Part shown: piece by piece, positions 1,378-16,869 of the stretch
Position numbering within the stretch: position 1 is the first letter of the stretch
How the letters are laid out: each line of letters starts with the position of its first letter
Sequence record: MN850619.1
Length of the DNA stretch: 64,000 nt
Reading direction: 5' to 3' (one strand)
Source: Escherichia phage finno
Notes under the pieces: model-generated
What the model was told of the DNA's origin: nothing
Databases searched by the model: none
What the model saw: the letters and a program-made list of their open reading frames with translations, nothing else
Position numbers and translations under genes: made by a program

Positions 1378-1398
1378 TAAGCGCCTCCGCAAATAGAA

Positions 1399-1897: not shown

Positions 1898-1901
1898 AAA
1901 T

Positions 1902-1994: not shown

Positions 1995-1995
1995 A

Positions 1996-2730
1996 TTATT
2001 TCTGCAATGCGTTCTTCATTTCTGGTGTTGCAATAGTGTCGATTACACCAGTTTTACAAGCATCATCAAACCAGTCTGGTAAGATACCTGCTAAGAACCC
2101 ATTGATATTCGTTTTAAGGTACTCTGCAATAAGGGCGGCTTCTTCTTCAATCATCTGCACAACTTCATCTGCATAAGCTGTAATCTTTGAGATACCTTCA
2201 TTAATCTTACTAACAGCCTGATTAGCTAAATCAGAAACAGTATCAAGACCCTTATCAATAGCGTCTTGTAAGTCACTTAACACACCGTTAACACTGTCTA
2301 GTGTGCTGTTAATCATGTCAATAGCTTTTTGACCATACTCTGTAGCAACACCCATAATACCACTGAATGGTGTACAACCAACTTGTTCTCCTGCTGCACC
2401 CATAACATTGGAGTATCCCTTTGCTACCTGCATACGTGATGAAAACTCATCAATAGACTTTTGACCATAGTCTGTTAGGGTCTTAGTAGTTGCTGTAGTG
2501 CTTGTCAGGCTTGTTGTAAAGCTGTTTAGAAGGACTGTTGTAAGTCCAGCAGCAACAAGCTTCTCCTTCATTGTAGGGTCTGTTACAGAGCTAATAGAGC
2601 TTACAAGTGATGTAGAGGCAGCTACGGTTCCACCGAGAACTGCTGCACCAGTAATAAGTGGGTTAGAAAACCCTTTACCGGTTTTTAAGAGATTAAAAAT
2701 CTCCTTACCTTGTTCTGTCATCTCTTTCAT
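1996..2730 (-). CDS. Hypothetical Ala/Thr/Ser/Gly-rich protein inside the tRNA cluster
   Basis: ORF track 1996..2793; start trimmed to internal Met (MKEMTEQ...) because the annotated N-terminus overlaps tRNA-Phe; low-complexity T/S/A-rich core. Confidence 0.5.
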   Translation of the reverse strand: MKEMTEQGKEIFNLLKTGKGFSNPLITGAAVLGGTVAASTSLVSSISSVTDPTMKEKLVAAGLTTVLLNSFTTSLTSTTATTKTLTDYGQKSIDEFSSRMQVAKGYSNVMGAAGEQVGCTPFSGIMGVATEYGQKAIDMINSTLDSVNGVLSDLQDAIDKGLDTVSDLANQAVSKINEGISKITAYADEVVQMIEEEAALIAEYLKTNINGFLAGILPDWFDDACKTGVIDTIATPEMKNALQK

Positions 2731-2748
2731 TAAGCACCTTTGAAATTG

Positions 2749-2823
2749 GTAGTCCAGTGGGATTTGAACCCTCTTCTCATGTTTTTCAGACACGCGCTTT
2801 AACCATATAAGCTACTTGGACTA
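2749..2823 (-). tRNA. tRNA-Phe (anticodon GAA), tentative
   Basis: T-loop ATTTGAA, acceptor TAGTCCA/TGGACTA, anticodon loop gives CUGAAAA. Confidence 0.65.
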
Positions 2824-2828
2824 TAAAT

Positions 2829-2905
2829 TGGGGTGACCTACGGGATTTGAACCCGTATAGACCATGTTCACAGCATGGGTCATTACCATTTATGATAAGG
2901 CCACA
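2829..2905 (-). tRNA. tRNA-His (anticodon GUG) with extra 5' G(-1)
   Basis: T-arm ACGGG-ATTTGAA-CCCGT, anticodon stem CCATG/CATGG, loop gives GUG; extra 5' nucleotide consistent with His G-1. Confidence 0.8.
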
Positions 2906-2935
2906 TTTAAGGACTCTCGTAAGAACCCTTAGAAG

Positions 2936-3011
2936 TGGCAGCGGCATAAGGATTTGAACCTTAATAGGACAGCTTCAGAGACTGCTGCATTGCCAGTTAT
3001 GCTATACCGCT
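2936..3011 (-). tRNA. tRNA-Gln (anticodon CUG), tentative
   Basis: T-arm TAAGG-ATTTGAA-CCTTA, D-stem 4/4 pairs, U8/A14/G18G19/A21 present, anticodon loop CUCUGAA. Confidence 0.7.
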
Positions 3012-3016
3012 AAAAT

Positions 3017-3095
3017 TGGTGCTCCATATCGGATTCGAACCGATACATAACACAGATTTTAAGTCTGGCCTCTCTGCCAATTGGAGTAATGGAGC
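3017..3095 (-). tRNA. tRNA, anticodon region reads UAA (Leu-type) but class I length; assignment tentative
   Basis: T-arm ATCGG-ATTCGAA-CCGAT, perfect acceptor GCTCCAT/ATGGAGC, CCA encoded; anticodon loop CUUAAAA; short variable loop. Confidence 0.6.
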
Positions 3096-3097
3096 AT

Positions 3098-3173
3098 TGG
3101 CGGGGGATGTTGGAATTGAACCAACTTCTTCGATTTCAAAGACCGAGGTTTTAACCTTGTAAACTAATCCCCT
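3098..3173 (-). tRNA. tRNA-Gln (anticodon UUG)
   Basis: T-arm GTTGG-AATTGAA-CCAAC, D-stem 4/4, anticodon stem 5/5, loop CUUUGAA. Confidence 0.75.
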
Positions 3174-3181
3174 TTAAATCT

Positions 3182-3739
3182 TTACTTTCTCAGTGGATGA
3201 ATAAAGAATGCCAACATAACTCTTTCCCTTGAGAATGCTCTTTCTTCTGGGACAACACTTTTAAGTTTCCATCCAACATAAATTCTCCAGTAAAACTGTT
3301 TACCAAAGACTTTAATTGATGGGATAAAAGCGAATAATCCCCAAGCATTACTGTTCCACATTAGGAGATAACCAGTCTGATTATCTTCAGGGTTAGAACT
3401 TACGTTGATATTACCTTTCCACTTAGTAACATCTTTTACATCTCTTCCTAATACATGGTAAGAGAAGTTATAAGCTTTGTTTCTCCAGAGCCATCCAACT
3501 CTCTGCATGTAGACACCCAGCTTACCAATCTTTCTAATCTTAGCCCATCTTTTAACGTGGCCTTCATCACCATCAATCTGGTTGTCATAGGTCTCCATCC
3601 ATCTGAATCCAAAAGGTAAGTGTCCTTTCTTTTCACTGTAGAATGGAACTACGAAAGGTGCTAAGATGACTGCTAGGGTTGCTGCAAATGGTTCTAGTAA
3701 AGCTAGGAAAATCCATGAAGCATACTTCAAATATCTCAT
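3182..3739 (-). CDS. Hypothetical membrane protein embedded in tRNA cluster
   Basis: 185 aa ORF with hydrophobic N-terminus (WIFLALLEPFAATLAVILAPFVVPF), flanked by tRNAs without overlap. Confidence 0.5.
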   Translation of the reverse strand: MRYLKYASWIFLALLEPFAATLAVILAPFVVPFYSEKKGHLPFGFRWMETYDNQIDGDEGHVKRWAKIRKIGKLGVYMQRVGWLWRNKAYNFSYHVLGRDVKDVTKWKGNINVSSNPEDNQTGYLLMWNSNAWGLFAFIPSIKVFGKQFYWRIYVGWKLKSVVPEERAFSRERVMLAFFIHPLRK

Positions 3740-3758
3740 CTAAATAGCCTCTTAAAAT

Positions 3759-3836
3759 TGGTGTTCCAAGACGGATTCGAACCGTCACTAATACAAGGTT
3801 TGAGCTTGCATCCTCTGCCAATTGGGATACTGGAAC
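3759..3836 (-). tRNA. tRNA, anticodon region reads CAA (Leu-type) but class I length; tentative
   Basis: T-arm GACGG-ATTCGAA-CCGTC, acceptor GTTCCAA/CTGGAAC, anticodon loop CUCAAAC, 6-nt variable loop. Confidence 0.6.
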
Positions 3837-3837
3837 A

Positions 3838-3912
3838 TGGTACTCACTAAAGGACTTGAACCTTTTTCTTCATCTTGTAAGGGTGATGTTTTACCATATA
3901 AACTAAGCGAGT
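3838..3912 (-). tRNA. tRNA-Val (anticodon UAC), tentative
   Basis: T-arm AAAGG-ACTTGAA-CCTTT, acceptor pairs 7/7 with one G-U, anticodon loop CUUACAA. Confidence 0.65.
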
Positions 3913-4007
3913 GTGAAAGAGGTCTGAAGTTGTGCCGCTAACTCAACTCCGTGGAATTTGTTACGGTCTTCAGTTGACACCAGCGGTCTTTCACTTGACC
4001 TCTGAAT

Positions 4008-4084
4008 TGGTGCTGCTCACAGGACTCGAACCTGCATTTCCATCCTTACAAGGGATGTGTAATAGCCAATTATACGAAAGCAGC
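4008..4084 (-). tRNA. tRNA-Thr (anticodon UGU)
   Basis: T-arm ACAGG-ACTCGAA-CCTGC, perfect anticodon stem CATCC/GGATG, loop CUUGUAA. Confidence 0.8.
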
Positions 4085-4090
4085 ATTGTT

Positions 4091-4165
4091 TGGAGCATCC
4101 AGAGGGAATCGAACCCTCAACCTCAGTTTGGAAGACTGTAATTTTCCCGTTTAAACTATGGATGC
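4091..4165 (-). tRNA. tRNA-Gly (anticodon UCC)
   Basis: T-arm GAGGG-AATCGAA-CCCTC, perfect acceptor GCATCCA/TGGATGC, loop CUUCCAA. Confidence 0.75.
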
Positions 4166-4171
4166 GCTAAT

Positions 4172-4247
4172 TGGTGGAGTCACTGAGAATTGAACTCAGT
4201 TCCCAAGTTTGCAAAACTCGAATTTTAACCATATAAACTATGACCCC
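4172..4247 (-). tRNA. tRNA-Ala (anticodon UGC)
   Basis: T-arm CTGAG-AATTGAA-CTCAG, anticodon stem CAAGT/ACTCG, loop UUUGCAA. Confidence 0.8.
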
Positions 4248-4253
4248 AATGTC

Positions 4254-4329
4254 TGGTACAGGTGGAGGGAATTGAACCCGTCGTCTTACTGATTAAGAGT
4301 CAGCCGCATAACCATTTTGCTACACCTGC
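4254..4329 (-). tRNA. tRNA-Lys (anticodon CUU), tentative
   Basis: T-loop AATTGAA, acceptor ACAGGTG/CACCTGC, anticodon loop CUCUUAA; close paralog of the tRNA at 5569-5644. Confidence 0.65.
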
Positions 4330-4336
4330 ATTAATT

Positions 4337-4414
4337 TGGTAGGAGACAAGGGATTCGAACCCTCAAACATCTCGTTCTAAGCGAGATAGGTTTACCAATT
4401 ACCGTCAACCTCCC
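4337..4414 (-). tRNA. tRNA, anticodon region reads UAG (Leu-type) but class I length; tentative
   Basis: T-arm AAGGG-ATTCGAA-CCCTC, perfect anticodon stem TCTCG/CGAGA with loop CUUAGAA, acceptor pairs with three G-U. Confidence 0.6.
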
Positions 4415-4668
4415 ATTAAGTCTTTTTAGAGAACTTCTAAGAACCTAAGCAACAAGGTTCCACAACAAGCTGTAATAACCTTAGAAGCCCTCTAAAAAGA
4501 CCTAAAAAGGTCTTTGCATAGTCTTGTTTAATCCGGTGACTAGAACCTTTGGAGAGCTTGATATTATCTCTTCTCCGTGACACCTACTAGGTGCTTTATC
4601 AGTGTGTACGACAATACACGAGGGATACCAAAGCAACATCCGAATGAAGCTTGGCTTTAAATCTTATT

Positions 4669-4759
4669 AGGCGGTAAGTAAAGGAGTCGAACCCTCACCG
4701 TATCTCTACAGTGGCAACAGTTTTCAAGACTGTTTGGCTGCCATTAGCCGCTACCTACC
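4669..4759 (-). tRNA. tRNA-Ser (anticodon UGA), class II
   Basis: T-loop AGTCGAA, perfect anticodon stem ACAGT/ACTGT, loop CUUGAAA, about 20-nt variable arm; CCA apparently not encoded. Confidence 0.75.
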
Positions 4760-4772
4760 CCTAATAAGACTT

Positions 4773-4855
4773 TGGCATGGGACGGAGGAGTTGAACCCCT
4801 TTGAAACGGTTTTGGAGGCCGTTGCTCATGCCTTAGAGTCTTAACATCGTCCCAC
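4773..4855 (-). tRNA. tRNA (83 nt with CCA; anticodon not resolved)
   Basis: T-arm GGAGG-AGTTGAA-CCCCT and complementary acceptor ATGGGAC/GTCCCAC; the internal fold could not be resolved by eye. Confidence 0.5.
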
Positions 4856-4997
4856 ACTATAATTCGAAGCTCACCGTATTATCTCAACACTGTAAAGCCC
4901 CTTCTCAGATTATTTACATGTTCTGGAAAACATGAGATACAGACCACCTCCCTACAGGAAGACCCGCTTAGGTCGTCTAAGTAATCTGCTAACTAAT

Positions 4998-5074
4998 TGG
5001 CACACCCTACAGGATTCGAACCTGTAACTAACGATTTAGAAGACCGTTGCTCTATCCAATTGAACTAAGGGTGC
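4998..5074 (-). tRNA. tRNA-Arg (anticodon UCU)
   Basis: T-arm ACAGG-ATTCGAA-CCTGT, anticodon stem ACGAT/ACCGT, loop CUUCUAA. Confidence 0.8.
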
Positions 5075-5410
5075 ATTAATCTTTAAAAACTCTCTTAGAA
5101 AGCCCTTAAAGATGCCCACCTTATTAATCATACCGTGGGCGAGTACGCCAAATTCTTTGATGAGGGATTGGAAGACCTCACTGGTGTTTAGCCTATCAAG
5201 CTACTGCCAGAAAAACATTGTCGTTTGCATTTATTTTAAATTTGCAAAATAGACGCTACGCAACGAAAACTATTCAGAATATGTACAACAAATTTCCCCA
5301 CATTGTGTTACGTCTAACGCTCATGTATTGGTGTTTGAATTATACATATTATGAAGTATTTTAGTTACTATAAAGTAGTCACATCTCAATGTCAACAACT
5401 TTATTGAAAT

Positions 5411-5486
5411 TGGTACTGGTAGGTGGAATCGAACCACCGATGTTCCCTTATCAGGGGAGTGTTATAACCTTCTTAACTATACCAGC
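5411..5486 (-). tRNA. tRNA-Ile (anticodon GAU), tentative
   Basis: T-arm GGTGG-AATCGAA-CCACC, acceptor ACTGGTA/TACCAGC, loop CUGAUAA. Confidence 0.7.
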
Positions 5487-5487
5487 T

Positions 5488-5564
5488 TGGAGGTTCAGAT
5501 GGGAATCGAACCCACATTCATAGGGCTTATGAGACCCTTGCATTACCTTATCTGCGACTGAACC
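5488..5564 (-). tRNA. tRNA with CAU anticodon (Met, initiator or lysidine-Ile not distinguished)
   Basis: T-arm ATGGG-AATCGAA-CCCAC, perfect acceptor GGTTCAG/CTGAACC, loop CUCAUAA. Confidence 0.7.
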
Positions 5565-5568
5565 ATTT

Positions 5569-5644
5569 TGGTAGAAGTGGAGGGATTCGAACCCATCGCC
5601 TGTCAGATTAAAAGTCTGCCGCATCACCATTCTGCTACACTTCC
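5569..5644 (-). tRNA. tRNA-Lys (anticodon UUU), tentative
   Basis: Paralog of the tRNA at 4254-4329; loop CUUUUAA; acceptor AGAAGTG/CACTTCC. Confidence 0.7.
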
Positions 5645-5844
5645 ATTAAATTATCTTTGTAGATAAGCTACCCAGACTTGCTTAAGGTCTGTAGCGATGT
5701 GCCTTTTTGGGTTTAAATCTAGAATTTACCCTTTCACCCTTTGTGGTCGCATACTCACAGGTAAGCTTAATAACTTATCTACAAAGATAATTACCAGACC
5801 GTTGTTTATCATCTTAAGTGCTACCATTACACCAACTCGACCTC

Positions 5845-5920
5845 TGCCGAGTGAAGGAATCGAACCTTCCCATTTTCTTTACCGAGAAATAGATTGTTTA
5901 AGTTTTGCTGTAAACGGTCT
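5845..5920 (-). tRNA. tRNA-like element (canonical T-arm only); possibly degenerate
   Basis: T-arm GAAGG-AATCGAA-CCTTC is present but no complementary 5' acceptor or clean anticodon arm was found. Confidence 0.3.
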
Positions 5921-6075
5921 TCTGTAAATTTGTTGAGCCAGACCAAGTTTTAAATTTTTTCAAAATTGAATTGGCTTGAAAATATCATACGTACTTGCTG
6001 TATTTGGTCTTCTGCTCCTTTAAAGAATACTCGTAAGAACTCTTTAAGGGAGGGGCTAAATAGCCCTCTCAAAAT

Positions 6076-6154
6076 TGGCGGTTACGAAGGGATTTGAACC
6101 CTCATCATCTCCCGTGACAGGGGAGTATTTTAACCAAAATTAAACTACATAACC
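6076..6154 (-). tRNA. tRNA-Asp (anticodon GUC)
   Basis: T-arm AAGGG-ATTTGAA-CCCTC, perfect anticodon stem CTCCC/GGGAG, loop CUGUCAC. Confidence 0.8.
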
Positions 6155-6159
6155 TTTAT

Positions 6160-6247
6160 TGGTGTGCCGTGTAGGAGTCGAACCTACCGAGTCTCAATGA
6201 CAAGGGATTTACAGTCCCCACCGCTACCATCTACGGGATAACGACAC
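6160..6247 (-). tRNA. tRNA-Tyr (anticodon GUA), class II
   Basis: T-arm GTAGG-AGTCGAA-CCTAC, 15-nt variable arm, anticodon stem AGGGA/TCCCC, loop CUGUAAA. Confidence 0.75.
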
Positions 6248-6316
6248 ATTTAATTTCTATTCAGGCTAAGGACTTGCACCTTACAAATCGGTGAGCAATC
6301 GCTTCTCTCCTAAATT

Positions 6317-6393
6317 TGGCGGTTAGTCAGGGATTCGAACCCTGTGCCATTCGCTTAACAGGCGACCGCACATACCTTATGTGCTTCCTAACC
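6317..6393 (-). tRNA. tRNA-Asn (anticodon GUU)
   Basis: T-arm CAGGG-ATTCGAA-CCCTG, loop CUGUUAA. Confidence 0.75.
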
Positions 6394-6476
6394 ATGTTTA
6401 GTATTACCAGACCGTATCTTTCAATTTTTCCGCTAAAAATTTAATAAATATTGCTGTAAACGGTCTTCTGTAAATT

Positions 6477-6553
6477 TGGAGGCGGGTGCAGGAGTCGAAC
6501 CTGCCGATACCATGCTAATGAGACATGTGAGACGCCCTTTCTCTATACCCGCA
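6477..6553 (-). tRNA. Second tRNA with CAU anticodon (Met/fMet/Ile2 not distinguished)
   Basis: T-arm GCAGG-AGTCGAA-CCTGC, anticodon stem CATGC/ACATG, loop CUCAUUA; apparent U1-C72 mismatch. Confidence 0.6.
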
Positions 6554-6644
6554 ATTCTTAATGACCAGACCAAATCTCTTCTTTGTCCGATTTACCTTCA
6601 GATGAATAAGATTAAGTTTGCTGTAATTGGTCTTCTGTCAAAAC

Positions 6645-6722
6645 TGGCGTTCCAGAAGGGATTTGAACCCTCAGATATCCACTTTGAAAGAGTGGTGACT
6701 TTACCATTTTGTCTACTGGAAC
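6645..6722 (-). tRNA. tRNA-Glu (anticodon UUC)
   Basis: T-arm AAGGG-ATTTGAA-CCCTC, perfect acceptor GTTCCAG/CTGGAAC, perfect anticodon stem CCACT/AGTGG, loop CUUUCAA. Confidence 0.8.
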
Positions 6723-6729
6723 ATTAATT

Positions 6730-6806
6730 TGGTCTCTGTTGGAGGACTTGAACCTCCGGCCTTACCGCCCCAAACGGAACGCTCTACCAAGCTGAGCTAA
6801 ACAGAG
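6730..6806 (-). tRNA. tRNA-Pro (anticodon UGG)
   Basis: T-arm GGAGG-ACTTGAA-CCTCC, perfect acceptor and D-stem, loop UUUGGGG with G37. Confidence 0.8.
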
Positions 6807-6971
6807 ATAAACTTTTCAAACTCTATGTAACCACTTTAACATTATTTTTTAGTGATTGTCAAGAACTTTTTTAAAATATTTTTCAGTATCTTAGAAAAGC
6901 TCTCGTTTCGTTTCTATGTAGAACATATTAAAGGGTATCAAACACATTGTCAATACCCTTTTTAAAACTTT

Positions 6972-8387
6972 TTACCAGATATAACGGTCAATCATTACTG
7001 CTTTGAGCATTACGCTGATTGGGTCAAACTTCTCACCACCAAGTAGAGCTTTTAAAGTGGCTGGAGAGAAACCAGATACCATTGCTACACCGTTATCCTT
7101 AACAGATACTTCGCAAGTGCCATTACGGTTTGCTAAGTACCAGAATACCAATTGTGGCATCTCATATCCAGCTTTTTTGTACTTGCTCTGAATTGCTTCA
7201 AAGTTTGTACGACCGTTAGCTCCATCAACCTGATTGAACTCCATATCAGAGAAGATGATAAGCTTACTTGGCATATCTTTCTGAGTCAAGTTGTTTCTTT
7301 TACCTGTCTCAAGAATGCGGTCAAAAGCTGCTTGTAAGTTAGTTGAGCCATATTCAACGTGTCGCATCACCTGACGATGACGGTTTCGTAAATCACCACT
7401 CAGTTCGATGAAGTGAGGGTTTGTTGAATAAACCATTAACTCGTTCTTAAAGCAACCTGTATTGCGTTCTGCTACATACAATGCAAGTGATACACCAATA
7501 TCAAGAGCAGTAATTGAACCAAAATTCACCCAAGACATTGAGCTTGAAACATCAGTCATACACAAGATGTTTTCACCTTCTGCCATCCAGTTTGGTAGTG
7601 CTTTCCACTGCTCATTGGCAACATCTGCATTACCATGCTTGATAGACTTAATCACATCGTATGGGTAAACAGCACCAGCGTTAATCTTAGTCTCACCTTT
7701 TGATAAGGACTCAATGTAAGCTTTGTAGCGTTCTCCATCTTTACGGTTAAACAGTTTTTGGTAACGTGCAGCAGCAAGTGAAGGAATCTTACTGTAGTCA
7801 ATCTTACCAAACTCATTAGCAGAGATTTTTTGCTCAACTGTATCAGATAGTGCAGACAACAGTGTGCGGTACTCTTTCTCACTCAAGTTGGCAAACTTGC
7901 AGAAACGTTTTACAAACTGTTTGTGACGTGGTTTGACTCGTGGTAACCACTTAGCTGCCAAACCTGCTGTTGCAGGGTCTAGTAATGCTGCTTCTAAATG
8001 TTTGAAGGCATCTGTCTCGAAGCGAGTGCCTACGAAGATTTTGAAGTCATCAAAACGACCAAGTTCTGCAATCTTATCCATAATGCGAAGAACCTGTGTA
8101 GGCTCTAAAACTTTATCTTCAATTGCCTGAAGCAAAACAGTTCTGAAGGCTTTACGCTCACCCATACCCTCTCGTACATCTCGCATATGCAGTAAAATAC
8201 GAACTGCAACATCAACATCCTCACGCAAAGCTTTGTAGAACAGGTCTGGTAAGATTTCTACGTTGCTACGGCTTGAACCAGCAGCTTTGTAAAAGTCCAC
8301 AAGAGCAGACATTGATGAAGTATGGTTTACAGCACCATTTTCAGTTCGACCTGCATGAAGGTGCGCATGTTTAAATAATTCGCTCAT
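6972..8387 (-). CDS. vWA-domain protein (MIDAS-like DVSSSMS); possibly DUF2828/TROVE (Ro60)-like
   Basis: 471 aa ORF; N-terminal TENGA...SALVDFYKAAGS stretch and a central DxSxS metal-site motif followed by a vWA-like region; family assignment from motif recollection only. Confidence 0.5.
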   Translation of the reverse strand: MSELFKHAHLHAGRTENGAVNHTSSMSALVDFYKAAGSSRSNVEILPDLFYKALREDVDVAVRILLHMRDVREGMGERKAFRTVLLQAIEDKVLEPTQVLRIMDKIAELGRFDDFKIFVGTRFETDAFKHLEAALLDPATAGLAAKWLPRVKPRHKQFVKRFCKFANLSEKEYRTLLSALSDTVEQKISANEFGKIDYSKIPSLAAARYQKLFNRKDGERYKAYIESLSKGETKINAGAVYPYDVIKSIKHGNADVANEQWKALPNWMAEGENILCMTDVSSSMSWVNFGSITALDIGVSLALYVAERNTGCFKNELMVYSTNPHFIELSGDLRNRHRQVMRHVEYGSTNLQAAFDRILETGKRNNLTQKDMPSKLIIFSDMEFNQVDGANGRTNFEAIQSKYKKAGYEMPQLVFWYLANRNGTCEVSVKDNGVAMVSGFSPATLKALLGGEKFDPISVMLKAVMIDRYIW

Positions 8388-8468
8388 ATTTTACTCTCTT
8401 CTCTCATTTGTTGTTTGATGTGACAGACTTTAGAGCAACTTTGTAGAGTCTGTCAACACCTTTTAAAA

Positions 8469-8840
8469 TTATTTTTTGAGAGTCGCTACAGCAGAGAACG
8501 TTGGTTTGTTATCTGTCTGTGGCTGACCACCATTATCAGGGGTTTTCTTAGTGTCTGCTGCAAGTGCTTTCATCTCACCTGCTGAGTGAGTAAAGATGGT
8601 TTTACCGACCTCAATCATACTCTTGATGGTTACGTCGTCTGTGTTTAACCCGAACTCTGCAAGCTTAGCAGCGTCCCTTGTAACAATCGCCTCAAACAGT
8701 TTTGCAGCAAACTCAGCAGAATTATCAATGGTCAGTTGAGCTTTTACAAGTGAGCTTTTGTTACGAGAGCCTTTTGGTCTTCCAGATGGGTTTCCAGATT
8801 GGCCTTTTTTAAACTGGCCTTTGTTTGTTCTGTTTTTCAT
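8469..8840 (-). CDS. Hypothetical protein with basic GNPSGRPKGSRNK motif (putative DNA-binding)
   Basis: 123 aa ORF; N-terminal KGQSGNPSGRPKG motif; last gene before the strand switch. Confidence 0.45.
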   Translation of the reverse strand: MKNRTNKGQFKKGQSGNPSGRPKGSRNKSSLVKAQLTIDNSAEFAAKLFEAIVTRDAAKLAEFGLNTDDVTIKSMIEVGKTIFTHSAGEMKALAADTKKTPDNGGQPQTDNKPTFSAVATLKK

Positions 8841-8954
8841 TGGTATGCCTCTTATAAGACCTCTTAAAAGGCTTTTAAGATAAAAGATAGATATCCAGAA
8901 AGATATCTGTTTAAATAGCCTTTTTAGAGGAACCTTTTAAGTTATCTTCTAAGT

Positions 8955-9050
8955 ATTTATAAGCCTACACCTTGTCAAGTACTTTGTCAACAACTTTTTA
9001 ACTTGCAATAGTTCTTGACTTGTTGTATGGATTACTGTACCATCTTACTT
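8955..9050. promoter_or_regulatory. Divergent promoter region with tandem TTGTCAA motif (CACCTTGTCAAGTACTTTGTCAAC)
   Basis: On the minus strand this reads TTGACA-N17-TAGGCT with a second TTGACA; on the plus strand TTGACT-N17-TACCAT sits upstream of the 9089 start; same 25-nt motif recurs at 56170-56195. Confidence 0.45.
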
Positions 9051-9088
9051 AAAGCTGTAGGTCTGCCTTGTTCTACAAAGGAGACTTA

Positions 9089-9250
9089 ATGAGAAAATCA
9101 AATAAACCGAAGAAAGGTAAGAATACCAATCACTGTAAGGAATCAAAAAGGGTAGAATTAATCTACTATTCATCCTCTGAAATTGGTCTGTACCTGTTCT
9201 TTCAAAATTACAGAAGACAAGAGGATTATCTATGTGTAGTTCCCAATTAG
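9089..9250 (+). CDS. Hypothetical small basic protein
   Basis: ORF track 9068..9250; start moved to the ATG preceded by a GGAGA RBS. Confidence 0.4.
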   Translation: MRKSNKPKKGKNTNHCKESKRVELIYYSSSEIGLYLFFQNYRRQEDYLCVVPN

Positions 9251-9465
9251 AAATCGCAGATATTATAGATTTATATCAAACTGCAAAGAGTCATGGCTAT
9301 ATAACCTCAATTGGAAAGAATAGTCACTATGATGCTTTGACTGGAATGTATTTCAGGGCAATGGCTCAATCTAGTGAACAACACTTAGTGGTTTCTTCCA
9401 GTGAGTTTACTTCGTTTCTCTATTGCAGCAAAATTATAAATCGCAGGAGAACTGAAAAATGTTAA
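9232..9465 (+). CDS. Hypothetical protein
   Basis: 77 aa ORF in the plus-strand operon, overlapping neighbours by a few nt. Confidence 0.4.
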   Translation: MCSSQLEIADIIDLYQTAKSHGYITSIGKNSHYDALTGMYFRAMAQSSEQHLVVSSSEFTSFLYCSKIINRRRTEKC

Positions 9466-10049
9466 CAGTAAGTTTTAATTACAATAGTGATGGCTCTGTA
9501 TCAATTAACTCACCATATGCAAATGACCTACTTAAAGAGCTAGTCAATCAGTGTGAGAGGGGTCTTCACTATGTTCAAAATTCTTTTAAACAGAAGACTA
9601 TTGCTAATAACTTGATGCGTGTAACAGTGACGGCATCAAATCCAAATTATGACTTTGATAGTGAAAGTCCGTACTCATTAGTTGCGCTTGGAGAGAGCAG
9701 CCAATTCAAACTTGTTTGCCACGACTCAGAAACATTCCTTAAGGTATTTTCCAACCTTATCCATAATAATAAGTACAGCTACGTTGATGGTAGTGTAAAC
9801 TTCTATCCAGCAAACTATACATGTTTGTTGACTGATAATATGAGAAAAAGTAAGCAAGAGCCTACAGAAATCTCATTTGATGTGAACTCTAGTCCAGACG
9901 CAGAAACAAGTAAGAACTTTGATATGAGTTATGCGTTGTCACTCAGTAAGAAATCCGAGTTCATTGATTATGTCAATGGATTTGGTTTTAAGTTTGATGA
10001 GAGTATGAATCTTAAAAAACTTAAGAACCTACTTAAGACCAAAGCTTAA
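9459..10049 (+). CDS. Hypothetical protein
   Basis: 196 aa ORF with start overlapping the upstream stop. Confidence 0.5.
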   Translation: MLTVSFNYNSDGSVSINSPYANDLLKELVNQCERGLHYVQNSFKQKTIANNLMRVTVTASNPNYDFDSESPYSLVALGESSQFKLVCHDSETFLKVFSNLIHNNKYSYVDGSVNFYPANYTCLLTDNMRKSKQEPTEISFDVNSSPDAETSKNFDMSYALSLSKKSEFIDYVNGFGFKFDESMNLKKLKNLLKTKA

Positions 10050-10096
10050 GTGTGAATAGGGGCTGATGCCCCTTTAACTATTTATAAGGATATTTA

Positions 10097-10468
10097 ATGA
10101 AAGCTAAGAGTGCAAAAGACTTTTATTGCTTCCTACAATCCTATATCAATTCCGTGCAAAATGGTGAAAGGTACAGCCTTAATGATGTTATCCCAACACC
10201 TTTGACATGGAGACTCAGCAAATGGCCTGAAGAAGATATTACACCAACAATCGAACAGCGCACCTACAAACCTGAAATCAATATTCCAGACTCTGAGAAT
10301 CTATTATATCCAATGTTCCATATTGTTGGTCTTGGAAGATTCCTTATGGATATCCAGTATGTAATTGGTAAAGGTTATAAGGTTAAAGGCATTGTTGTTG
10401 GTGATGTATCTCCACACCACAAAGGTTATTTTAGACTAAACGCACATTTAGAGGCTAAAAAGAAATGA
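10097..10468 (+). CDS. Hypothetical protein, paralog of the N-terminal module of the downstream Ig-like protein
   Basis: 123 aa; aligns by eye with residues 1-110 of the 10465..11598 product (shared FMDLQY motif). Confidence 0.55.
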   Translation: MKAKSAKDFYCFLQSYINSVQNGERYSLNDVIPTPLTWRLSKWPEEDITPTIEQRTYKPEINIPDSENLLYPMFHIVGLGRFLMDIQYVIGKGYKVKGIVVGDVSPHHKGYFRLNAHLEAKKK

Positions 10469-11598
10469 TTAAAGCAAAGACTTACCCAGACTTCAAAGAG
10501 TTTGTGAAGGGCTTCATTGCAAACGTAAAAGCTGGTAAGAGATATGATTTTAGAACATATCAAGAGGCTATTTTACCGCTTACCTACAGTTCGTATTGGC
10601 CTGAAGCTGATATTGCAGAAGTTGAGGAGTTTGACTACAAACCAGACTACAAAGTTCCATTTAGTGATGAGTTGCTTTACAGCATCGGTGCTCAAATGAG
10701 AACTTCTGACTTCTTCATGGACTTACAATATGCAATTATCAATGGTAAAGACGTTGATACAGTTTATTGTGAATGGCTGGCAAGAGTTAAACCATTCTCA
10801 ATGTTGAATGCTAAGTTGAAGGACGCTATCAAGCCACCATCAATTACTCAGCAACCAACCAATCAAACAGTAAATGAAGGTGGTACACTTACCCTAAGCA
10901 TTATTGCAACTAATGCCACTGGATATCAATGGAAAAAGGATGGTGAGGATATCACTAGCGCCACATCTGCAACCTACACAAAACAGTCTGTAGCACCTTC
11001 TGATGCTGGTTCATACACTTGTGTTGTATCTGGAGAGGCTGGGACAAGTGTTACCTCAGATGCGGCAACAGTCACTGTCAACGCACTACCTGTGATTACA
11101 CAACAACCTTCTAGCCAGACCATCAATGAGGGTGGAAACATCAACTTGGAAGTGACTGCAACAGGTGCAACAGGTTACCAATGGAAGAAAGATGGCTCTG
11201 ACATTCCTTCAGCTACAAATGCTACCTATAGCAAGTCTGGTGCGCTGCCAGCAGATGCAGGCTCATACACTTGCGTTGTAACAGGTGCGGGTGGTGCAGT
11301 GACATCTAATGCTGCTGTAGTAACTGTGAACGTACTTCCAGTAATTACTCAACAGCCAACCAATCAAGAAATCACTGAAGGTGAGACCTTAACGTTGAAT
11401 GTTGTGGCAACTGGTGCAACAGGCTACCAGTGGAAGAAAGGTGAGGAAGACATCCTCGATGCAACTACTGCAACTTACACCAAAGAAGGTGCAACCGCTG
11501 CTGATGCAGGAAGCTACACCTGTGTAGTTACTGGTGCAGGTGGCTCTGTCACATCTAACGCAGCAACAGTTACTGTTAACCCAGCAGGGGAGGCATAA
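10465..11598 (+). CDS. Ig-like repeat protein (three tandem Ig-like domains), possible virion decoration/adhesin
   Basis: 377 aa; three ~80-aa repeats each with ITQQP..N.GG.L.L...ATGATGYQWKKDG...AT...DAGSYTCVV.G..G.VTS.AA.VTVN. Confidence 0.6.
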   Translation: MIKAKTYPDFKEFVKGFIANVKAGKRYDFRTYQEAILPLTYSSYWPEADIAEVEEFDYKPDYKVPFSDELLYSIGAQMRTSDFFMDLQYAIINGKDVDTVYCEWLARVKPFSMLNAKLKDAIKPPSITQQPTNQTVNEGGTLTLSIIATNATGYQWKKDGEDITSATSATYTKQSVAPSDAGSYTCVVSGEAGTSVTSDAATVTVNALPVITQQPSSQTINEGGNINLEVTATGATGYQWKKDGSDIPSATNATYSKSGALPADAGSYTCVVTGAGGAVTSNAAVVTVNVLPVITQQPTNQEITEGETLTLNVVATGATGYQWKKGEEDILDATTATYTKEGATAADAGSYTCVVTGAGGSVTSNAATVTVNPAGEA

Positions 11599-12062
11599 TG
11601 CAACTCTCAAGAAAAGGCTTAGAAGCTATTAAGTTCTTTGAAGGTCTTAAGCTAGAGGCTTACGAAGATTCTGCTGGAATCCCTACAATTGGGTATGGGA
11701 CAATCCGTATTGCTGGTAAACCTGTTAAGATGGGTATGAGAATCACGGCTGAACAAGCTGAACAGTATCTTCTCGCAGATGTTGAAAAGTTCGTTGCAGC
11801 AGTGAACAAAGCCATCAAGGTTCCAACTTCTCAGAACGAGTTTGATGCACTTGTAAGTGAAACATACAACATTGGCATCATAGCTATGCAGGACTCTACA
11901 TTTATCAAGCGCCACAACGATGGTAATAAGGTCGGTTGTGCAGAAGCTATGCAATGGTGGAACAAGGTTACAGTCAAAGGTAAGAAGGTTACTTCAAACG
12001 GCCTGAAAAACAGACGTAGAATGGAAGCTGACATTTATCTTGACAGTGTATACCCAAAGTAA
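11598..12062 (+). CDS. Endolysin, GH24 lysozyme (lambda R / P22 gp19 type)
   Basis: 154 aa; EGLKLEAYEDSAGIPTIGYG...NEFDALVS..YNIG matches the GH24 phage lysozyme catalytic region. Confidence 0.8.
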   Translation: MQLSRKGLEAIKFFEGLKLEAYEDSAGIPTIGYGTIRIAGKPVKMGMRITAEQAEQYLLADVEKFVAAVNKAIKVPTSQNEFDALVSETYNIGIIAMQDSTFIKRHNDGNKVGCAEAMQWWNKVTVKGKKVTSNGLKNRRRMEADIYLDSVYPK

Positions 12063-12074
12063 TATCTTCATAGG

Positions 12075-12101
12075 CTCCTTCGGGAGCCTTTTTTATTTTC
12101 T
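12075..12101 (+). terminator. Rho-independent terminator (GGCTCCTTCGGGAGCC + T-run)
   Basis: Perfect GC hairpin with TTCG tetraloop followed by TTTTTTATTTT immediately after the endolysin stop. Confidence 0.7.
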
Positions 12102-12113
12102 AAGGAGAAAACT

Positions 12114-12512
12114 ATGAAACTTTGGGCTAGTGACTTTGGAACTTTTAAGTACACTCGTAATGGCTCGCTTGTACGTATTGTCGGAAACAATGTGGTTTCA
12201 AGAGGTGACAAGGTATATACACGGTTTACTGTAGAGCTTGTTGAGTTGTCACCTATTGAGTCTGTGAACAATGGCCTCTTCAAGTTTGAGACTTACAATG
12301 TTAATGAACATGGACAATTCAACCCTCTTGGTGAAAGTGGACTTGATATTATTTCAGAGCACCCATTGACAAAAGAGCAACTCGCAAGTTATTATAAAAC
12401 TGTTCTGGAAAGGCAGTTAGCAACACATGAACAAGAAGCTAACTATCATTTACAACATTGCGAAGCTTTAAGAGCAAAAATCGAACAAGCAGAGAGAGGT
12501 TTTTATGAATAA
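12114..12512 (+). CDS. Hypothetical protein
   Basis: 132 aa ORF with AAGGAGA RBS. Confidence 0.5.
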   Translation: MKLWASDFGTFKYTRNGSLVRIVGNNVVSRGDKVYTRFTVELVELSPIESVNNGLFKFETYNVNEHGQFNPLGESGLDIISEHPLTKEQLASYYKTVLERQLATHEQEANYHLQHCEALRAKIEQAERGFYE

Positions 12513-12900
12513 TATCAGTCAGATTAAAGTTAAAGTCGATGTTAGCCGTTACAGTGGAGATGAAGAATTAGACCTGCGAGATGCGATTCTCTATGAGAAG
12601 AATGGTAATCTTCATTTACATTTTGAAGACACAAACACATATCTACACAGATGTCGAGATGATGTAGATGGTTGTCCTGTTTTTGCTTGGTATAATTTAG
12701 AGTTACCTCTTTATGCAATCCACTATCCAGATGGTGGGGAAGACTGGACTACTCAATCAATCTTTGATGAGCTTAACGGTATTCCAGTTGAGCAAGAAGA
12801 GCAAGAACCCGTTGAACTTACCTTCACTTTTATCAAAGAAGAGAAAGTAGGTGACTTGTCAGTAACCGAAGCAATTCAAGTCTCACAGGTTATTCGTTAA
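12505..12900 (+). CDS. Hypothetical acidic protein
   Basis: 131 aa ORF, overlapping start/stop. Confidence 0.5.
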   Translation: MNNISQIKVKVDVSRYSGDEELDLRDAILYEKNGNLHLHFEDTNTYLHRCRDDVDGCPVFAWYNLELPLYAIHYPDGGEDWTTQSIFDELNGIPVEQEEQEPVELTFTFIKEEKVGDLSVTEAIQVSQVIR

Positions 12901-13193
12901 TGAGCAAAGTACAGGTTGTTTTCCCTATTTGTGACTTCTCACTAGAGCGTGAACTTGACCTGTACGAAGAAATTACTGACGAAATTATCTGGTCTGTTGT
13001 AGAAGAGGCTATCAAGAAACTATATGGTGGCCTCTTAAACCCATCAAGTAAAAAGCTCAATACTAAACAAGTAGCTGATACATACACTTCCTATGATGCC
13101 TACAACAAACCTTTTGAGAATACCTGCTTTGACCTTATGGTAGGCAATAACAAAGTCAACTATTTCTTCGTCAGAGAGTTTAACGATGAGTAA
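12900..13193 (+). CDS. Hypothetical protein
   Basis: 97 aa ORF, ATGA overlap with upstream stop. Confidence 0.45.
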   Translation: MSKVQVVFPICDFSLERELDLYEEITDEIIWSVVEEAIKKLYGGLLNPSSKKLNTKQVADTYTSYDAYNKPFENTCFDLMVGNNKVNYFFVREFNDE

Positions 13194-13530
13194 GCTCCAT
13201 GTCACAGTTTACAAAAACTTCGCAGATATCAAAGAGTCTTTAACAAATAAGCTTGACTTACAACGTAAAAGACTCTTTTTAATGTATGACATAGACAACT
13301 ACAACCATCCTAAAGAGTTTAACTACAAAGATGGTACAAAGGTCGTTGAATTTGAAGATTCTGTGACGGTGTATGTCAAATATGACTTACCAGCAAAGTA
13401 CATAGGGATGTTAGAGTATTACATATTCAAACATACAGGTATGCGTGGTGAAGCTGTCAAGATATCTTCTATAGAAGTTTTTGAGAAACCTAACACACAA
13501 CTTAAAAAGTATTTAATGAGGAAACTGTAA
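13186..13530 (+). CDS. Hypothetical protein
   Basis: 114 aa ORF. Confidence 0.45.
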   Translation: MSKLHVTVYKNFADIKESLTNKLDLQRKRLFLMYDIDNYNHPKEFNYKDGTKVVEFEDSVTVYVKYDLPAKYIGMLEYYIFKHTGMRGEAVKISSIEVFEKPNTQLKKYLMRKL

Positions 13531-14111
13531 TGTCCGAAGAGCAACAGGATATCATTCCACAAGTAACACTTGTACAACACTTTGGAAATATTGAAGGGTG
13601 TGTTGCACTTTTTCAACCGAGTATCAATTCCCCTGCAAAAGTTTGCAAGTTGACTATGAATGTTAATAACATTAGTGTCTGCCTTGTTGATGAAGTCCAG
13701 TACTTCAAGTTTAATGACAGAGAAGTTGATGCTGCACTTTTGAAGTATCGAGCTAGTCTCGAAAAAGATATTGACCACAAAGAACTTGTAACACTGTTTG
13801 GTGACCTTCACAAGCTTCTTGAAAAAGTTATGAAGCGCACATACTACATGAACAATGGCTCAATTATCACCACTTTGATTTCACCATGTATTTCAGAGCC
13901 AATTTTAACTGATGACGGTGGATACTACGTGGTAGCATCAGCAGACCCTGATTGGTGGATGAAGAACACAGCACTTAAGACGGTTATCGAGGCTATCCGT
14001 GAACATATCCCTTCATTCAGCCCGTGGAAAGGTAAAAGTGATGATTTTATCGCACTATTGAGTGAAGAGAGTAACAAGCGCAGTGCATTACTGCCTAAAA
14101 AATACTCTTGA
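13530..14111 (+). CDS. Hypothetical protein
   Basis: 193 aa ORF. Confidence 0.5.
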   Translation: MSEEQQDIIPQVTLVQHFGNIEGCVALFQPSINSPAKVCKLTMNVNNISVCLVDEVQYFKFNDREVDAALLKYRASLEKDIDHKELVTLFGDLHKLLEKVMKRTYYMNNGSIITTLISPCISEPILTDDGGYYVVASADPDWWMKNTALKTVIEAIREHIPSFSPWKGKSDDFIALLSEESNKRSALLPKKYS

Positions 14112-14183
14112 CCGAGTATACAAAACTGATTATGATGGGAGCTATCGAGAGGTAGTTCCCTTTTTAGTTTCTGGAGAATAGAT

Positions 14184-14729
14184 ATGGCTAAAGTGAAAGA
14201 ACACGATAAAATTATTTTGTATGTTAAGCAGAACCCTTCAAAGAGTGTTGAGGCTGTTGTAACACACATCTCACAAAATGGTACAGTTTATTTCCGACCA
14301 CTGAAGAACTTAGACTTTGACACAACACCAAACCACACATTCAGTACTTCTGCAAGACTGTGTGCAGGAACTGTATACTCAACTGCTGAGATTGATTCCT
14401 TATCTTTCACAGGTGCTTACAAAGACTTTATAGGGATTGCTTTAAAGGACTCTGAAGAATCTTTTAAATTTTTCATGGAGACTGATAAAGGTTGCTACAC
14501 ACATGTTATGCCAGTCTATAAGAAAGTTGACACAGAACTTACCAGTAAGTGCGAAGAGATTAGTAGTGACTTAATAGAACTTCAAGCATCTACTAAGAAT
14601 GCCATTTACATTATCGAGCGAGATTACTTAGAAGTTCTTTTTAGAGACATGTTAAAAGCTGGTTTTACTCCAAATGAAATTACAAAAGAAACTCAACGCC
14701 AGTTCAGAAATGCTATGGTGAAAGAATGA
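14184..14729 (+). CDS. Hypothetical protein
   Basis: 181 aa ORF. Confidence 0.5.
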   Translation: MAKVKEHDKIILYVKQNPSKSVEAVVTHISQNGTVYFRPLKNLDFDTTPNHTFSTSARLCAGTVYSTAEIDSLSFTGAYKDFIGIALKDSEESFKFFMETDKGCYTHVMPVYKKVDTELTSKCEEISSDLIELQASTKNAIYIIERDYLEVLFRDMLKAGFTPNEITKETQRQFRNAMVKE

Positions 14730-14944
14730 AAAAACTAACTACAGTTGAAGATTACTACAAACTTTCCCTGTTAGAACAGTATCGTAGAAGCCAGAATATC
14801 AGAAAATGCTATGGTAAGCACGCTGAAGGTGACTTTTACCGTTGCTATGATGCAGATTTAAAAGGCGTAACACCTAGAGGGAAAGTCCTGCAAAGACTTG
14901 TTGACCTTGAGTGGAACAAACGATTGAGAGGGGTTGGAAAATGA
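14726..14944 (+). CDS. Hypothetical small protein
   Basis: 72 aa ORF, overlapping start. Confidence 0.4.
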   Translation: MKKLTTVEDYYKLSLLEQYRRSQNIRKCYGKHAEGDFYRCYDADLKGVTPRGKVLQRLVDLEWNKRLRGVGK

Positions 14945-15444
14945 TTTACGAAGAAAGATACAAGATAGATTTTCAGGATACTTGCCATCATACTTCTTTA
15001 AGAGTGACGAAACCAAATGGAGAGGTTGGTATCATAGCACATTTTGGTGGTGATTATTGGTATGGTACAGGTTGCTTTGAAGGCTACACACAAGAATACC
15101 TGAAAGCTTTCTACAGAGACTTTGCAAATGACTACAACAGAGTTGTTGACGAAAAGAATAAGTGTATTAAGCATGAACACCATGCCAGAGGTTGCCTAAG
15201 TATTGTTATGGTACTGGCGTTCTTCTTAGCAATGCTACTGGCAGTATCAGCAATTAGCTGCATAGCTCAAGATTTGACCATTACACAGATTACTACAAAG
15301 ATACATGATATCTGGTACTTGTATGCTGTTCCTTTAGCTGGTATTATCATCTCACTAATAAGGTTCAGAGTTCATAAGAAACGACTTAAGGACTCTGAGG
15401 TTAAACTTGAAGAGGTAAGTAAAGAATGCAACCTACAATTATAG
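14911..15444 (+). CDS. Hypothetical protein with two C-terminal transmembrane helices
   Basis: 177 aa; hydrophobic segments LSIVMVLAFFLAMLLAVSAISCIAQ and YLYAVPLAGIIISLI. Confidence 0.5.
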   Translation: MEQTIERGWKMIYEERYKIDFQDTCHHTSLRVTKPNGEVGIIAHFGGDYWYGTGCFEGYTQEYLKAFYRDFANDYNRVVDEKNKCIKHEHHARGCLSIVMVLAFFLAMLLAVSAISCIAQDLTITQITTKIHDIWYLYAVPLAGIIISLIRFRVHKKRLKDSEVKLEEVSKECNLQL

Positions 15445-15520
15445 CTGTATGTGTTCGTTTTGCAATCGCTGAAATGATTAACAAGGCAATCTTAAAAGAT
15501 GCCTATGGAGAGACTAAGTA

Positions 15521-15745
15521 ATGATTAAGACACCTGTACCAATTTTTGGATTTCCTTCTATAGAAGAGTTTAAAGTTTATCTTGACAAAAACTTCTACAA
15601 TGAGCAGCCTGTTACTTTGCTGAAGAGTGACTTATCAGAGCTTCTTGATATGGTTATCAAGTCAACCCCTGAGAAGGAACCTGAACAGAAAGCTGAGAAG
15701 AAGACTAGTAAGAAATCCGATAAGAAGACTGAAAAGTCTGAGTAA
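15521..15745 (+). CDS. Hypothetical small protein with lysine/glutamate-rich tail
   Basis: 74 aa ORF. Confidence 0.4.
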   Translation: MIKTPVPIFGFPSIEEFKVYLDKNFYNEQPVTLLKSDLSELLDMVIKSTPEKEPEQKAEKKTSKKSDKKTEKSE

Positions 15746-15797
15746 TAGCTTAGGGGTTACTTGATAGCCCCTTTGTATAAACTTAGAAGGTAGCGAA

Positions 15798-16262: not shown

Positions 16263-16275
16263 TGGTGTGATAGCT

Positions 16276-16824: not shown

Positions 16825-16835
16825 AATATCTTAAG

Positions 16836-16866: not shown

Positions 16867-16869
16867 ATA

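Follow-up and report, generated by a model that had tools for sequence, protein, structure and literature searches.

Among the promoters used by unmodified host polymerase, A1-A3 of phage T7, the early promoters of T5 and the rrnB P1-like promoters with an UP element are characterized by a TTGACA hexamer, an A/T-rich tract upstream of it, a spacer of 17-18 base pairs (bp) and a -10 box of the form TAnnnT. In a stretch of 64,000 nucleotides (nt) from Escherichia phage finno (sequence record MN850619.1; hereafter, the window), we analyzed three intergenic sites at which the minus strand carries two perfect TTGACA hexamers in tandem, an upstream one (hexamer 1) and a downstream one (hexamer 2). 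These sites exhibit the same elements as the early promoters of T7 and T5 and, like them, stand at the head of early transcription units; however, we know of no T7 or T5 early promoter, and of no UP-element promoter, that has been described with a -35 hexamer in its spacer, a weak -10 box and a long, conserved and structured leader. From their sequence, we propose with moderate confidence that the three sites are leftward promoters of the host sigma-70 RNA polymerase, in which a duplicated -35 hexamer located in the spacer would be an intrinsic promoter feature. The putative promoter would consist, from upstream to downstream, of an A-rich UP-like tract, a perfect -35 hexamer, a spacer of 17-18 bp and a weak TAnnnT -10 box; within the spacer, the second perfect TTGACA is found 12-13 bp past the first, and 4-6 bp separate it from the -10 box. 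The promoter would be followed by a long, conserved, structured and AT-rich leader of about 115-160 nt. Polymerase would start at each of the three sites.

Two other described systems are comparable. In T4 middle promoters, a MotA box (TGCTT) at -30 replaces the -35 hexamer, 11-13 bp from the -10 box, and is read by a remodelled host polymerase. The three sites share with these promoters the combination of a second upstream element with a TAnnnT -10 box, which in T4 serves temporal switching, but their extra element is TTGACA and lies only 4-6 bp from the -10 box. The sites of lambda CII and P22 C1 (TTGC-N6-TTGC at PRE, PI and PaQ) also exhibit a direct repeat starting with TTG, with a 6-nt gap, at the -35 region of a promoter with a poor -10 box. 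However, the CII repeat has a period of 10, flanks a poor -35 and is activator-dependent, whereas here the units repeat every 12-13 bp, the first one being a consensus -35 in its own right and the second lying in the spacer. TTGC-N6-TTGC around a poor -35 was found at none of the three sites, the units of which are TTGACA, and the phage is virulent.

The window belongs to a Felix O1-like phage of the genus Felixounavirus (Ounavirinae), and about 5 kb around its DNA polymerase gene was 95-97% identical to many relatives. How genes are timed in Felix O1 is unknown according to its genome paper (Whichard et al. 2010, PMC3185647), in which almost no promoters were found in the two divergent control regions. 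Proteins modifying promoter specificity were not reported for Felix O1 either (PMC3185647), and no search for MotA or AsiA homologues was made here. One promoter, P41, was described at site 1 as TTGACA(N15)TATAGG, its -35 being our hexamer 1, and nothing similar was found in the 96-97 region, i.e. at site 2 (PMC3185647). In addition, in the GenBank records of phages ASO1A, ASO1B and AYO145A, a promoter feature "similar to TTGACA(N15-18)TATAAT" is placed at hexamer 1 of sites 2 and 3. All of these annotations chose other -10 boxes (N15-N16) and do not mention the second hexamer. The best-supported description is that of predicted sigma-70 promoters with a second, selected -35 hexamer in the spacer, for which the promoter reading holds and the -10 assignment is corrected.

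Site 1 is located at 8968-8991 (plus strand CACCTTGTCAAGTACTTTGTCAAC, read on the minus strand as GTTGACAAAGTACTTGACAAGGTG), site 2 at 56172-56195 (GTTGACAATGCACTTGACAAGGTG on the minus strand) and site 3 at 19787-19809 (plus strand CAATGTCAAGGGGTATTGTCAAC, minus strand GTTGACAATACCCCTTGACATTG). The original prediction had described a tandem TTGTCAA motif at both strand-switch regions and in one intergenic gap within the small-gene array, and this distribution was recovered. All three sequences exist and site 2 had been placed exactly, but the other two had been placed 8-10 nt away (at 8960-8985 and 19778-19800), and the half-sites, said to be about 11 nt apart, are 12, 12 and 13 nt apart from start to start at sites 1, 2 and 3, respectively. 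The corresponding gaps between heptamers are 5, 5 and 6 nt, one unit of site 3 being ATGTCAA. An initial search with TTGTCAA-N8-14-TTGTCAA had returned zero matches in the window because the true heptamer gap is 5. On the minus strand, all sites read TTGACA-N6/7-TTGACA, with the same 12, 12 and 13 nt between hexamer starts.

The window contains three perfect TTGACA pairs on the same strand with 5-7 nt between the units, whereas 100 dinucleotide shuffles gave 0.11 on average and 2 at most. Similar excesses were detected for pairs with at most one mismatch and the same gap (12 versus 2.86 in dinucleotide shuffles) and for the motif 20-mer with at most three mismatches (22 matches versus 4.8 expected). 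The three perfect sites all fall within the 15.4% of the window that is neither coding sequence nor transfer RNA (tRNA) gene, so that the refuting condition of the original prediction, a similar frequency of the motif in coding regions, does not apply, and the whole Felix O1 genome contains the same three sites only, with none in the structural module.

At site 1, hexamer 1 (8985-8990, minus strand), the predicted -35 of a leftward promoter and part of Felix O1 P41 (PMC3185647), is followed after 17 nt by the -10 box TAGGCT (8962-8967, minus strand), with hexamer 2 (8973-8978, minus strand) in the spacer at about -23 to -18. At site 2, the predicted -35 is hexamer 1 at 56189-56194 (minus strand; annotated in ASO1B as a sigma-70-like promoter), hexamer 2 lies in the spacer at 56177-56182 (minus strand), and the -10 box TAATCT (TAGTCT in some relatives; 56165-56170, minus strand) is found 18 nt after hexamer 1 and is preceded by TGn. 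At site 3, hexamer 1 (19803-19808, minus strand; annotated as a promoter in ASO1A and AYO145A) is the predicted -35 for the gene at 19090-19620, the -10 box TAATGT (19780-19785, minus strand) lies 17 nt after it, and hexamer 2 (19790-19795, minus strand; 13 nt after hexamer 1) is part of an imperfect inverted repeat, CCCCTTGA…TCGAGGGG. The gap after hexamer 1, hexamer 2 itself and the gap before the -10 box therefore measure 6+6+5, 6+6+6 and 7+6+4 at sites 1, 2 and 3, respectively.

Upstream of hexamer 1, we observed by eye A-rich tracts ending in …TTAAAAAGTTG, …AAAAAATTATAAAAAGCAAG and …AAAAAACTTTTAAAAAAGTG; the UP-like tract of site 1 extends over 8991-9012 on the minus strand (…GCAAGTTAAAAAGTTG). 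The same upstream context, AAAAAG(T/C)nG, is also present at many single-hexamer TTGACA promoters of the window, e.g. at 6862, 6953, 8456 and 21496. All three sites point toward minus-strand genes, which start 130-175 nt downstream (at 8840, 55997 and 19620). A TTGACA -35 and T-12, A-11 and T-7 at 17 ± 1 bp, upstream of a gene and oriented toward it, as in sigma-70 promoters, were found at each site, and the evidence supports this architecture and its orientation. The promoter of site 1 would serve the DUF5681 gene (8469-8840) and the 471-amino-acid gene, and read-through might extend to the tRNA cluster beyond; that of site 2 is predicted to serve the gene at 55575-55997, then the replication and nucleotide-metabolism genes.

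Two perfect -35 hexamers on the same strand could also belong to two tandem promoters (P1 and P2) that overlap with an offset of 12 bp, each with its own -10 box, as the wording of the original prediction, a -10-like box 17 nt downstream, implies. Such a box is present for the upstream hexamer (17, 18 and 17 nt) but not for the downstream one: no -10 box was found 16-18 nt from hexamer 2, the best candidates (ACTTAG, AGTGGG and GGGGTT) having 1-2 matches out of 6. Moreover, no TAnnnT is kept at this position in relatives, and a 1-nt insertion at site 1 in Suspvirus and Mooglevirus shifts the register of the -10 box that hexamer 2 would use. A second promoter of this kind appears very unlikely.

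To assess conservation across genera, we aligned the three regions with those of Suspvirus, Mooglevirus and other Felixounavirus phages, and added IMG/VR contigs by means of anchors outside the motif. Both hexamers were invariant in 12 distinct variants (33 contigs/phages) at site 1 and in 16 distinct variants at site 2, while at site 3 hexamer 2 was invariant in 7 variants, as was hexamer 1 except for TTGACG in Suspvirus EP1; the IMG/VR and GenBank sequences are related, and these counts do not represent independent events. The bases between the hexamers varied at site 1 (AAGTAC, AAGGAC, AAGCAC, AATGAC, TTCCTC, AGCCTC and AGGGGA), at 3-4 positions of site 2 and at site 3. The -10 box was TAGGCT, TAGCCT, TAAGTT or TAGTGT at site 1, TAATCT or TAGTCT at site 2, and TAATGT, TAACTT, TAGATT or TACATT at site 3, so that T1, A2 and T6 were kept across genera while the middle bases varied. 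This pattern is that expected of selected sigma-70 -35 and -10 elements. It supports purifying selection acting on the two hexamers and, within the -10 box, on T, A and T, and shows that hexamer 2 is itself selected. It also bears on the idea of a neutral relic, in which a 12-bp tandem duplication would have been copied between sites with a functionless second copy. Sites 1 and 2 do share ACTTGACAAGGTGT exactly; however, 12 out of 12 hexamer positions are fixed across three genera while the bases between and around them have diverged freely, and the layout recurs independently in a second phage lineage (see below). We consider a relic extremely unlikely.

The seventh base, which would complete the palindrome TTGnCAA, was found to vary (TTGACAT is present at site 3 and, in Mooglevirus, at site 1), and the central A was on the same strand in both units of every sequence examined. 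For these two reasons the pair is a direct repeat of the -35 consensus rather than a dyad, and the conserved unit is the asymmetric hexamer TTGACA, not a palindromic heptamer.

The motif had been interpreted as a regulator-binding operator overlapping divergent promoters. In such a model, a phage or host protein bound to the two TTGACA(A) units would make the leftward -35 and spacer inaccessible; bound at site 1 or 2, it might in addition control the neighbouring rightward promoter, which would yield a temporal switch. Rightward candidates were indeed found there, back to back with the leftward promoters. At site 1, TTGCAA-17-TATGGA (9003-9031, plus strand) was read from the sequence and TTGACT-17-TACCAT (9015-9043, plus strand) was flagged by a promoter scan, the whole block (9003-9043) being invariant across genera; at site 2, a candidate for the DNA polymerase gene, TTGCTT-17-TAATGT (56196-56224, plus strand; TAGGGT in Mooglevirus), has its -35 only 1 bp from the leftward -35. 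The hexamer pair lies at about -40 to -60 from these rightward promoters. Moreover, both units are selected although one would suffice as a -35, temporal control in Felix O1 is unexplained (PMC3185647), and the phage encodes a Cro/C1-type helix-turn-helix protein (62360-62656), the only regulator found among the small early open reading frames by PHROG and Pfam scans. On the other hand, the unit is the -35 consensus hexamer and has no dyad symmetry, so that the palindrome typical of Cro/CI operators is lacking; hexamer 2 shifts by 1 bp while the distance from -35 to -10 stays; similar layouts occur in T4-type phages and in Kolesnikvirus; and site 3 has neither a rightward gene nor a divergent partner promoter. 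The interpretation was therefore sound as regards a non-random, conserved cis-element with two TTGACA in promoter regions, and as regards divergent promoters at sites 1 and 2, but an operator in place of a promoter is not supported. We regard an operator as doubtful, and a role of hexamer 2 as the operator of a dedicated repressor as less likely than an intrinsic one.

Other candidates were tried at the same sites and rejected. No fit to the motif was apparent for the consensus sites of PhoB, FNR, IHF or the 434 operator. For rightward use of the complementary TTGTCA, a single weak candidate was detected, at site 1 (TTGTCA-17-AATAGT); sites 2 and 3 had none. A hairpin between the near-palindromic heptamers of sites 1 and 2 would comprise only 3+3 AT-rich pairs with a central mismatch; the inverted repeat that overlaps the hexamers is real at site 3 and at 6925-6953.

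We then compared the sites with those of Kolesnikvirus, the DNA polymerase of which shows about 60% identity. The homologue of site 2 in this genus is a single TTGACA-17-TACATT, which confirms the identity of the -35 hexamer at site 2. Elsewhere in the genome, Erwinia phage vEam_PM_21 (Kolesnikvirus) exhibits two perfect TTGACA-N6-TTGACA-N5-TAnnnT sites, at positions 69909 and 83701: TTGACA-tcaact-TTGACA-gaacg-TATGTT is located upstream of rIIB, and TTGACA-ttccac-TTGACA-ggggc-TAAAGT lies past the last gene, near the right end. These two additional double sites indicate that the layout is a movable promoter variant, not bound to particular genes. At the places that match them, Felix O1-like phages have single-hexamer promoters or none. 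A tblastn search of the vEam_PM_21 genome revealed no homologue of the helix-turn-helix protein of the window (62360-62656), a result that covers this recognisable regulator only.

An exact scan of IMG/VR for TTGACA-N6-TTGACA-N5-TAnnnT revealed that, among the matches listed, many of the non-coding ones adjoin a gene for a T4 gp55-like late sigma factor and point away from it. Because such a scan could return positives only, we took 80 gp55-like loci by protein similarity alone, regardless of the motif; their nearest isolates were a Methylophilales phage and cyanophages, at 60-67% identity. In these T4-type contigs, two perfect TTGACA hexamers 11-12 nt apart were present in 60 out of the 71 distinct regions upstream of gp55-like genes, and most of the remaining regions had one degenerate hexamer. 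The gaps on either side of hexamer 2 compensated each other, as (6,5) in 43 regions, (5,6) in 14 and (6,6) in 2, and hexamer 1 was 17 nt from the -10 box in 57 out of 59 regions. Hexamer 1 behaves as the -35 and hexamer 2 floats by 1 bp, and the sites of the window, given above, fit the same spacing rule. Among isolates, Melnitz has TTGCTT-N5-TTGACA-N6-TATATT and cyanophage Syn1 has a single TTGACA-17-TAGAAT. In aquatic T4-type phages, more generally, a strong divergent promoter was observed upstream of the gp55 gene, usually with a double TTGACA, followed by a short conserved sequence (…GGTGTAGCCCC…/…TATGTAAGGGTT…). This sequence is often an AT palindrome with a T-run and contains no obvious open reading frame; it may represent a small RNA or an element resembling an origin.

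Taken together, an intrinsic role of hexamer 2 is favoured because it is identical to the target of sigma region 4 and lacks dyad symmetry, because a 1-bp shift is tolerated while the true spacer is kept, and because hexamer 2 is found again in phages without any recognisable regulator in common. As to what this role might be, we can only guess that hexamer 2 is read by sigma region 4, either as an extra docking site that would raise polymerase capture where the -10 box is poor, or as a second register that would be used after the phage has modified the polymerase. The -10 boxes of double-hexamer promoters were apparently weaker than those of single-hexamer ones, in a small comparison made without statistics. 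We tentatively raise the possibility that TTGACA-N5/7-TTGACA-N4/6-TAnnnT is a distinct functional architecture, present in unrelated virulent phages (enterobacterial Ounavirinae and aquatic T4-type phages), in which hexamer 2, placed one helical turn past hexamer 1, might be a second register; such a register could be for the host polymerase or for a phage-remodelled polymerase with a repositioned sigma region 4.

Several observations weigh against reading the sites as promoters with an intrinsic second hexamer. No established mechanism is known to us that would let a -35 hexamer at -23 to -18 aid sigma-70 polymerase, and our literature searches for a "second -35 element" found nothing useful. 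The -10 boxes are weak, with 3 out of 6 matches to TATAAT, and because of this a simple sigma-70 consensus scan for promoters and terminators missed the leftward sites in all three regions. Moreover, the whole intergenic regions are unusually conserved and the motif may hence overlap other functions. In the literature searched, no transcription start site, in vitro transcription or binding data were found for Felix O1-like phages. Reverse transcription-PCR in Felix O1 showed peaks at 5 min for ORF22 and at 25 min for ORFs 23, 41, 42, 97 and 98 (PMC3185647), but the published values are too noisy for grouping the downstream genes into a single temporal class.

Each promoter candidate is followed by a conserved leader, which changes little across the three genera and folds into long hairpins. 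The site 1 leader (8841-8955, minus strand; about 115 nt) was nearly invariant across genera and is predicted to form a long hairpin with the arms CTTAAAAGG/CCTTTTAAG. In the conserved, AT-rich site 2 leader (55998-56158, minus strand; about 160 nt), CTTAAAAG-type repeats accompany a small hairpin, TAACGTAT/ATACGTTA, and the site 3 leader (19621-19773, minus strand; about 150 nt) combines CTTAAAAG repeats with an GGGAGGTAATGACCTCCC hairpin. As RNA, the leaders folded better than shuffled sequences (z = -3.45, -1.74 and -3.77 at sites 1, 2 and 3, respectively), and a few pairs showed compensatory changes across genera, e.g. TAACGTAT/ATACGTTA to TATATGTAT/ATACATA at 56041-56059. Motifs of the CTTAAAAG type, which are mostly arms of long inverted repeats, were matched 93 times with at most one mismatch, versus 40 expected, and clustered at the three leaders and at 17755-18168. 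The leaders appeared to be more conserved across genera than the start of the flanking coding sequences. At gathering thresholds, Rfam detected only tRNAs, and nothing at the motif or the leaders. These leaders could be structures of the 5' untranslated region, processing or anti-termination elements, or sites acting at the DNA level.

Since the leaders are extremely conserved, we also considered transcription-activated replication origins, in which a conserved, AT-rich region with short repeats, downstream of a strong promoter, would serve for unwinding. The primary origin of T7 consists of tandem promoters and an AT-rich stretch, and oriF and oriG of T4 of a promoter and an unwinding element. 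By analogy, the leaders are AT-rich, more conserved than their flanking genes and full of CTTAAAAG-type direct and inverted repeats; site 2 adjoins the DNA polymerase gene, and the T4-type double promoter precedes a short AT-rich palindrome with no obvious open reading frame. However, the leaders also fold as RNA hairpins, with a few compensatory pairs, which fits a role as 5' untranslated regions; the model would need three origins in 87 kb, which is possible, and hexamer 2 would be left unexplained. An origin function thus seems clearly unlikely, and promoters with a duplicated -35 hexamer remain the reading we prefer.

Some features of the window resemble the three sites. A copy with one mismatch, TTGACA-atgtgt-TTGATA-ccctt-TAATAT (6925-6953, minus strand), is located upstream of the tRNA cluster and overlaps the hairpin of terminator t42 (PMC3185647 Table 2). 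A weaker copy, TTGAAA-N6-TTGACA-N6-TTGACC-N5-TACACT (35557-35597, minus strand), lies inside the coding sequence of phosphoribosyl pyrophosphate (PRPP) synthetase, about 120-160 nt upstream of nadV; it is doubtful as a promoter because Felix O1 has TCGACC at this position. In addition, TTGACAAGGTG, the 11-mer formed by hexamer 2 and its flank at sites 1 and 2, also occurs at 40916-40921 (minus strand) and 58961-58966 (plus strand), directly past the stop codons of nrdD and the DNA polymerase gene.

The PeSL cassettes of T4-type phages, which recur between small early genes, consist of a near-consensus sigma-70 early promoter fused to a stem-loop (PMC2839356, PMC4122927). This character is shown by site 3 and the copy at 6925-6953, both of which overlap hairpins, and by the repeats at 21496 and 22546. 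As differences, a single -35 is described in the passages searched of the 2014 PeSL paper, and sites 1 and 2 have no upstream terminator or same-strand upstream gene. We also observed promoter-hairpin fusions resembling PeSL cassettes at 6925-6960, 30670-30710, 40880-40925, 21460-21500 and 22510-22550. Among such structures, GGGTATTGACAATGTGTTTGATACCC corresponds to terminator t42 of the Felix O1 paper (PMC3185647) and includes a -35 box, TTGACAaggggctttgaagccccttATAAT has a hairpin within the spacer, and a repeated 39-bp promoter with the hairpin CAACGGGGCGGGAATGACCTTCCCC recurs between small early genes.

The window is organized in four blocks: a leftward block (1-8840, minus strand) with the DUF5681 protein, the 471-amino-acid protein and 25 tRNAs; a rightward block (9089-16824, plus strand) with tail and lysis genes; a second leftward block (18448-55997, minus strand) with small early genes, rII, and nucleotide-metabolism and replication genes; and a second rightward block from 56255 onward (plus strand) with the DNA polymerase gene and others. 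Felix O1 intergenic regions 40/41 and 96/97 are the counterparts of the two strand switches, at about 8840-9089 and 55997-56255, respectively. The longest open reading frame of the DNA polymerase begins at 56225; however, the true start is likely the ATG at 56255, since AGAGGGAG is found just before it and relatives annotate the equivalent start. At the first strand switch, TATAAATA (8954-8961, minus strand), an exact match to the T4 late-promoter consensus, lies directly after the -10 box of site 1, upstream of the unit toward the packaging genes. This match is probably due to chance, since Suspvirus and Mooglevirus have TAATAAAA instead.

Between the convergent blocks, 1.6 kb (16825-18447) contain almost no open reading frames, and no genes are annotated there in wV8 and Felix O1. 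This region is densely filled with short repeats of either orientation (CTTGTTAG, CTGTTAAG, GCTTAAAAG, TATACAGAG and CTATAAC). Similar repeats (CTGTTA/CTTTAAC) are found in Kolesnikvirus in sequence that is duplicated at both ends of the record (about 72 and 84320); for this reason the region may lie near the genome ends, or it may be a protein-binding array.

Felix O1-like phages are widely used in Salmonella typing, in biocontrol and in E. coli therapy. By the present analysis, both strand-switch regions have conserved host-type promoters, for which likely -35 and -10 boxes are now assigned. The analysis also shows that an extra -35 hexamer in the spacer is under selection, and that the same layout recurs in a second, unrelated phage lineage. 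If hexamer 2 has a mechanistic role, it would be an element beyond the standard description of promoters by -35, extended -10, -10 and UP elements, and one that could easily be tested with purified polymerase. If the architecture proves to be a distinct functional one, with hexamer 2 as a second register, the double-hexamer promoters would be control points of the temporal programme of Felix O1-like phages.

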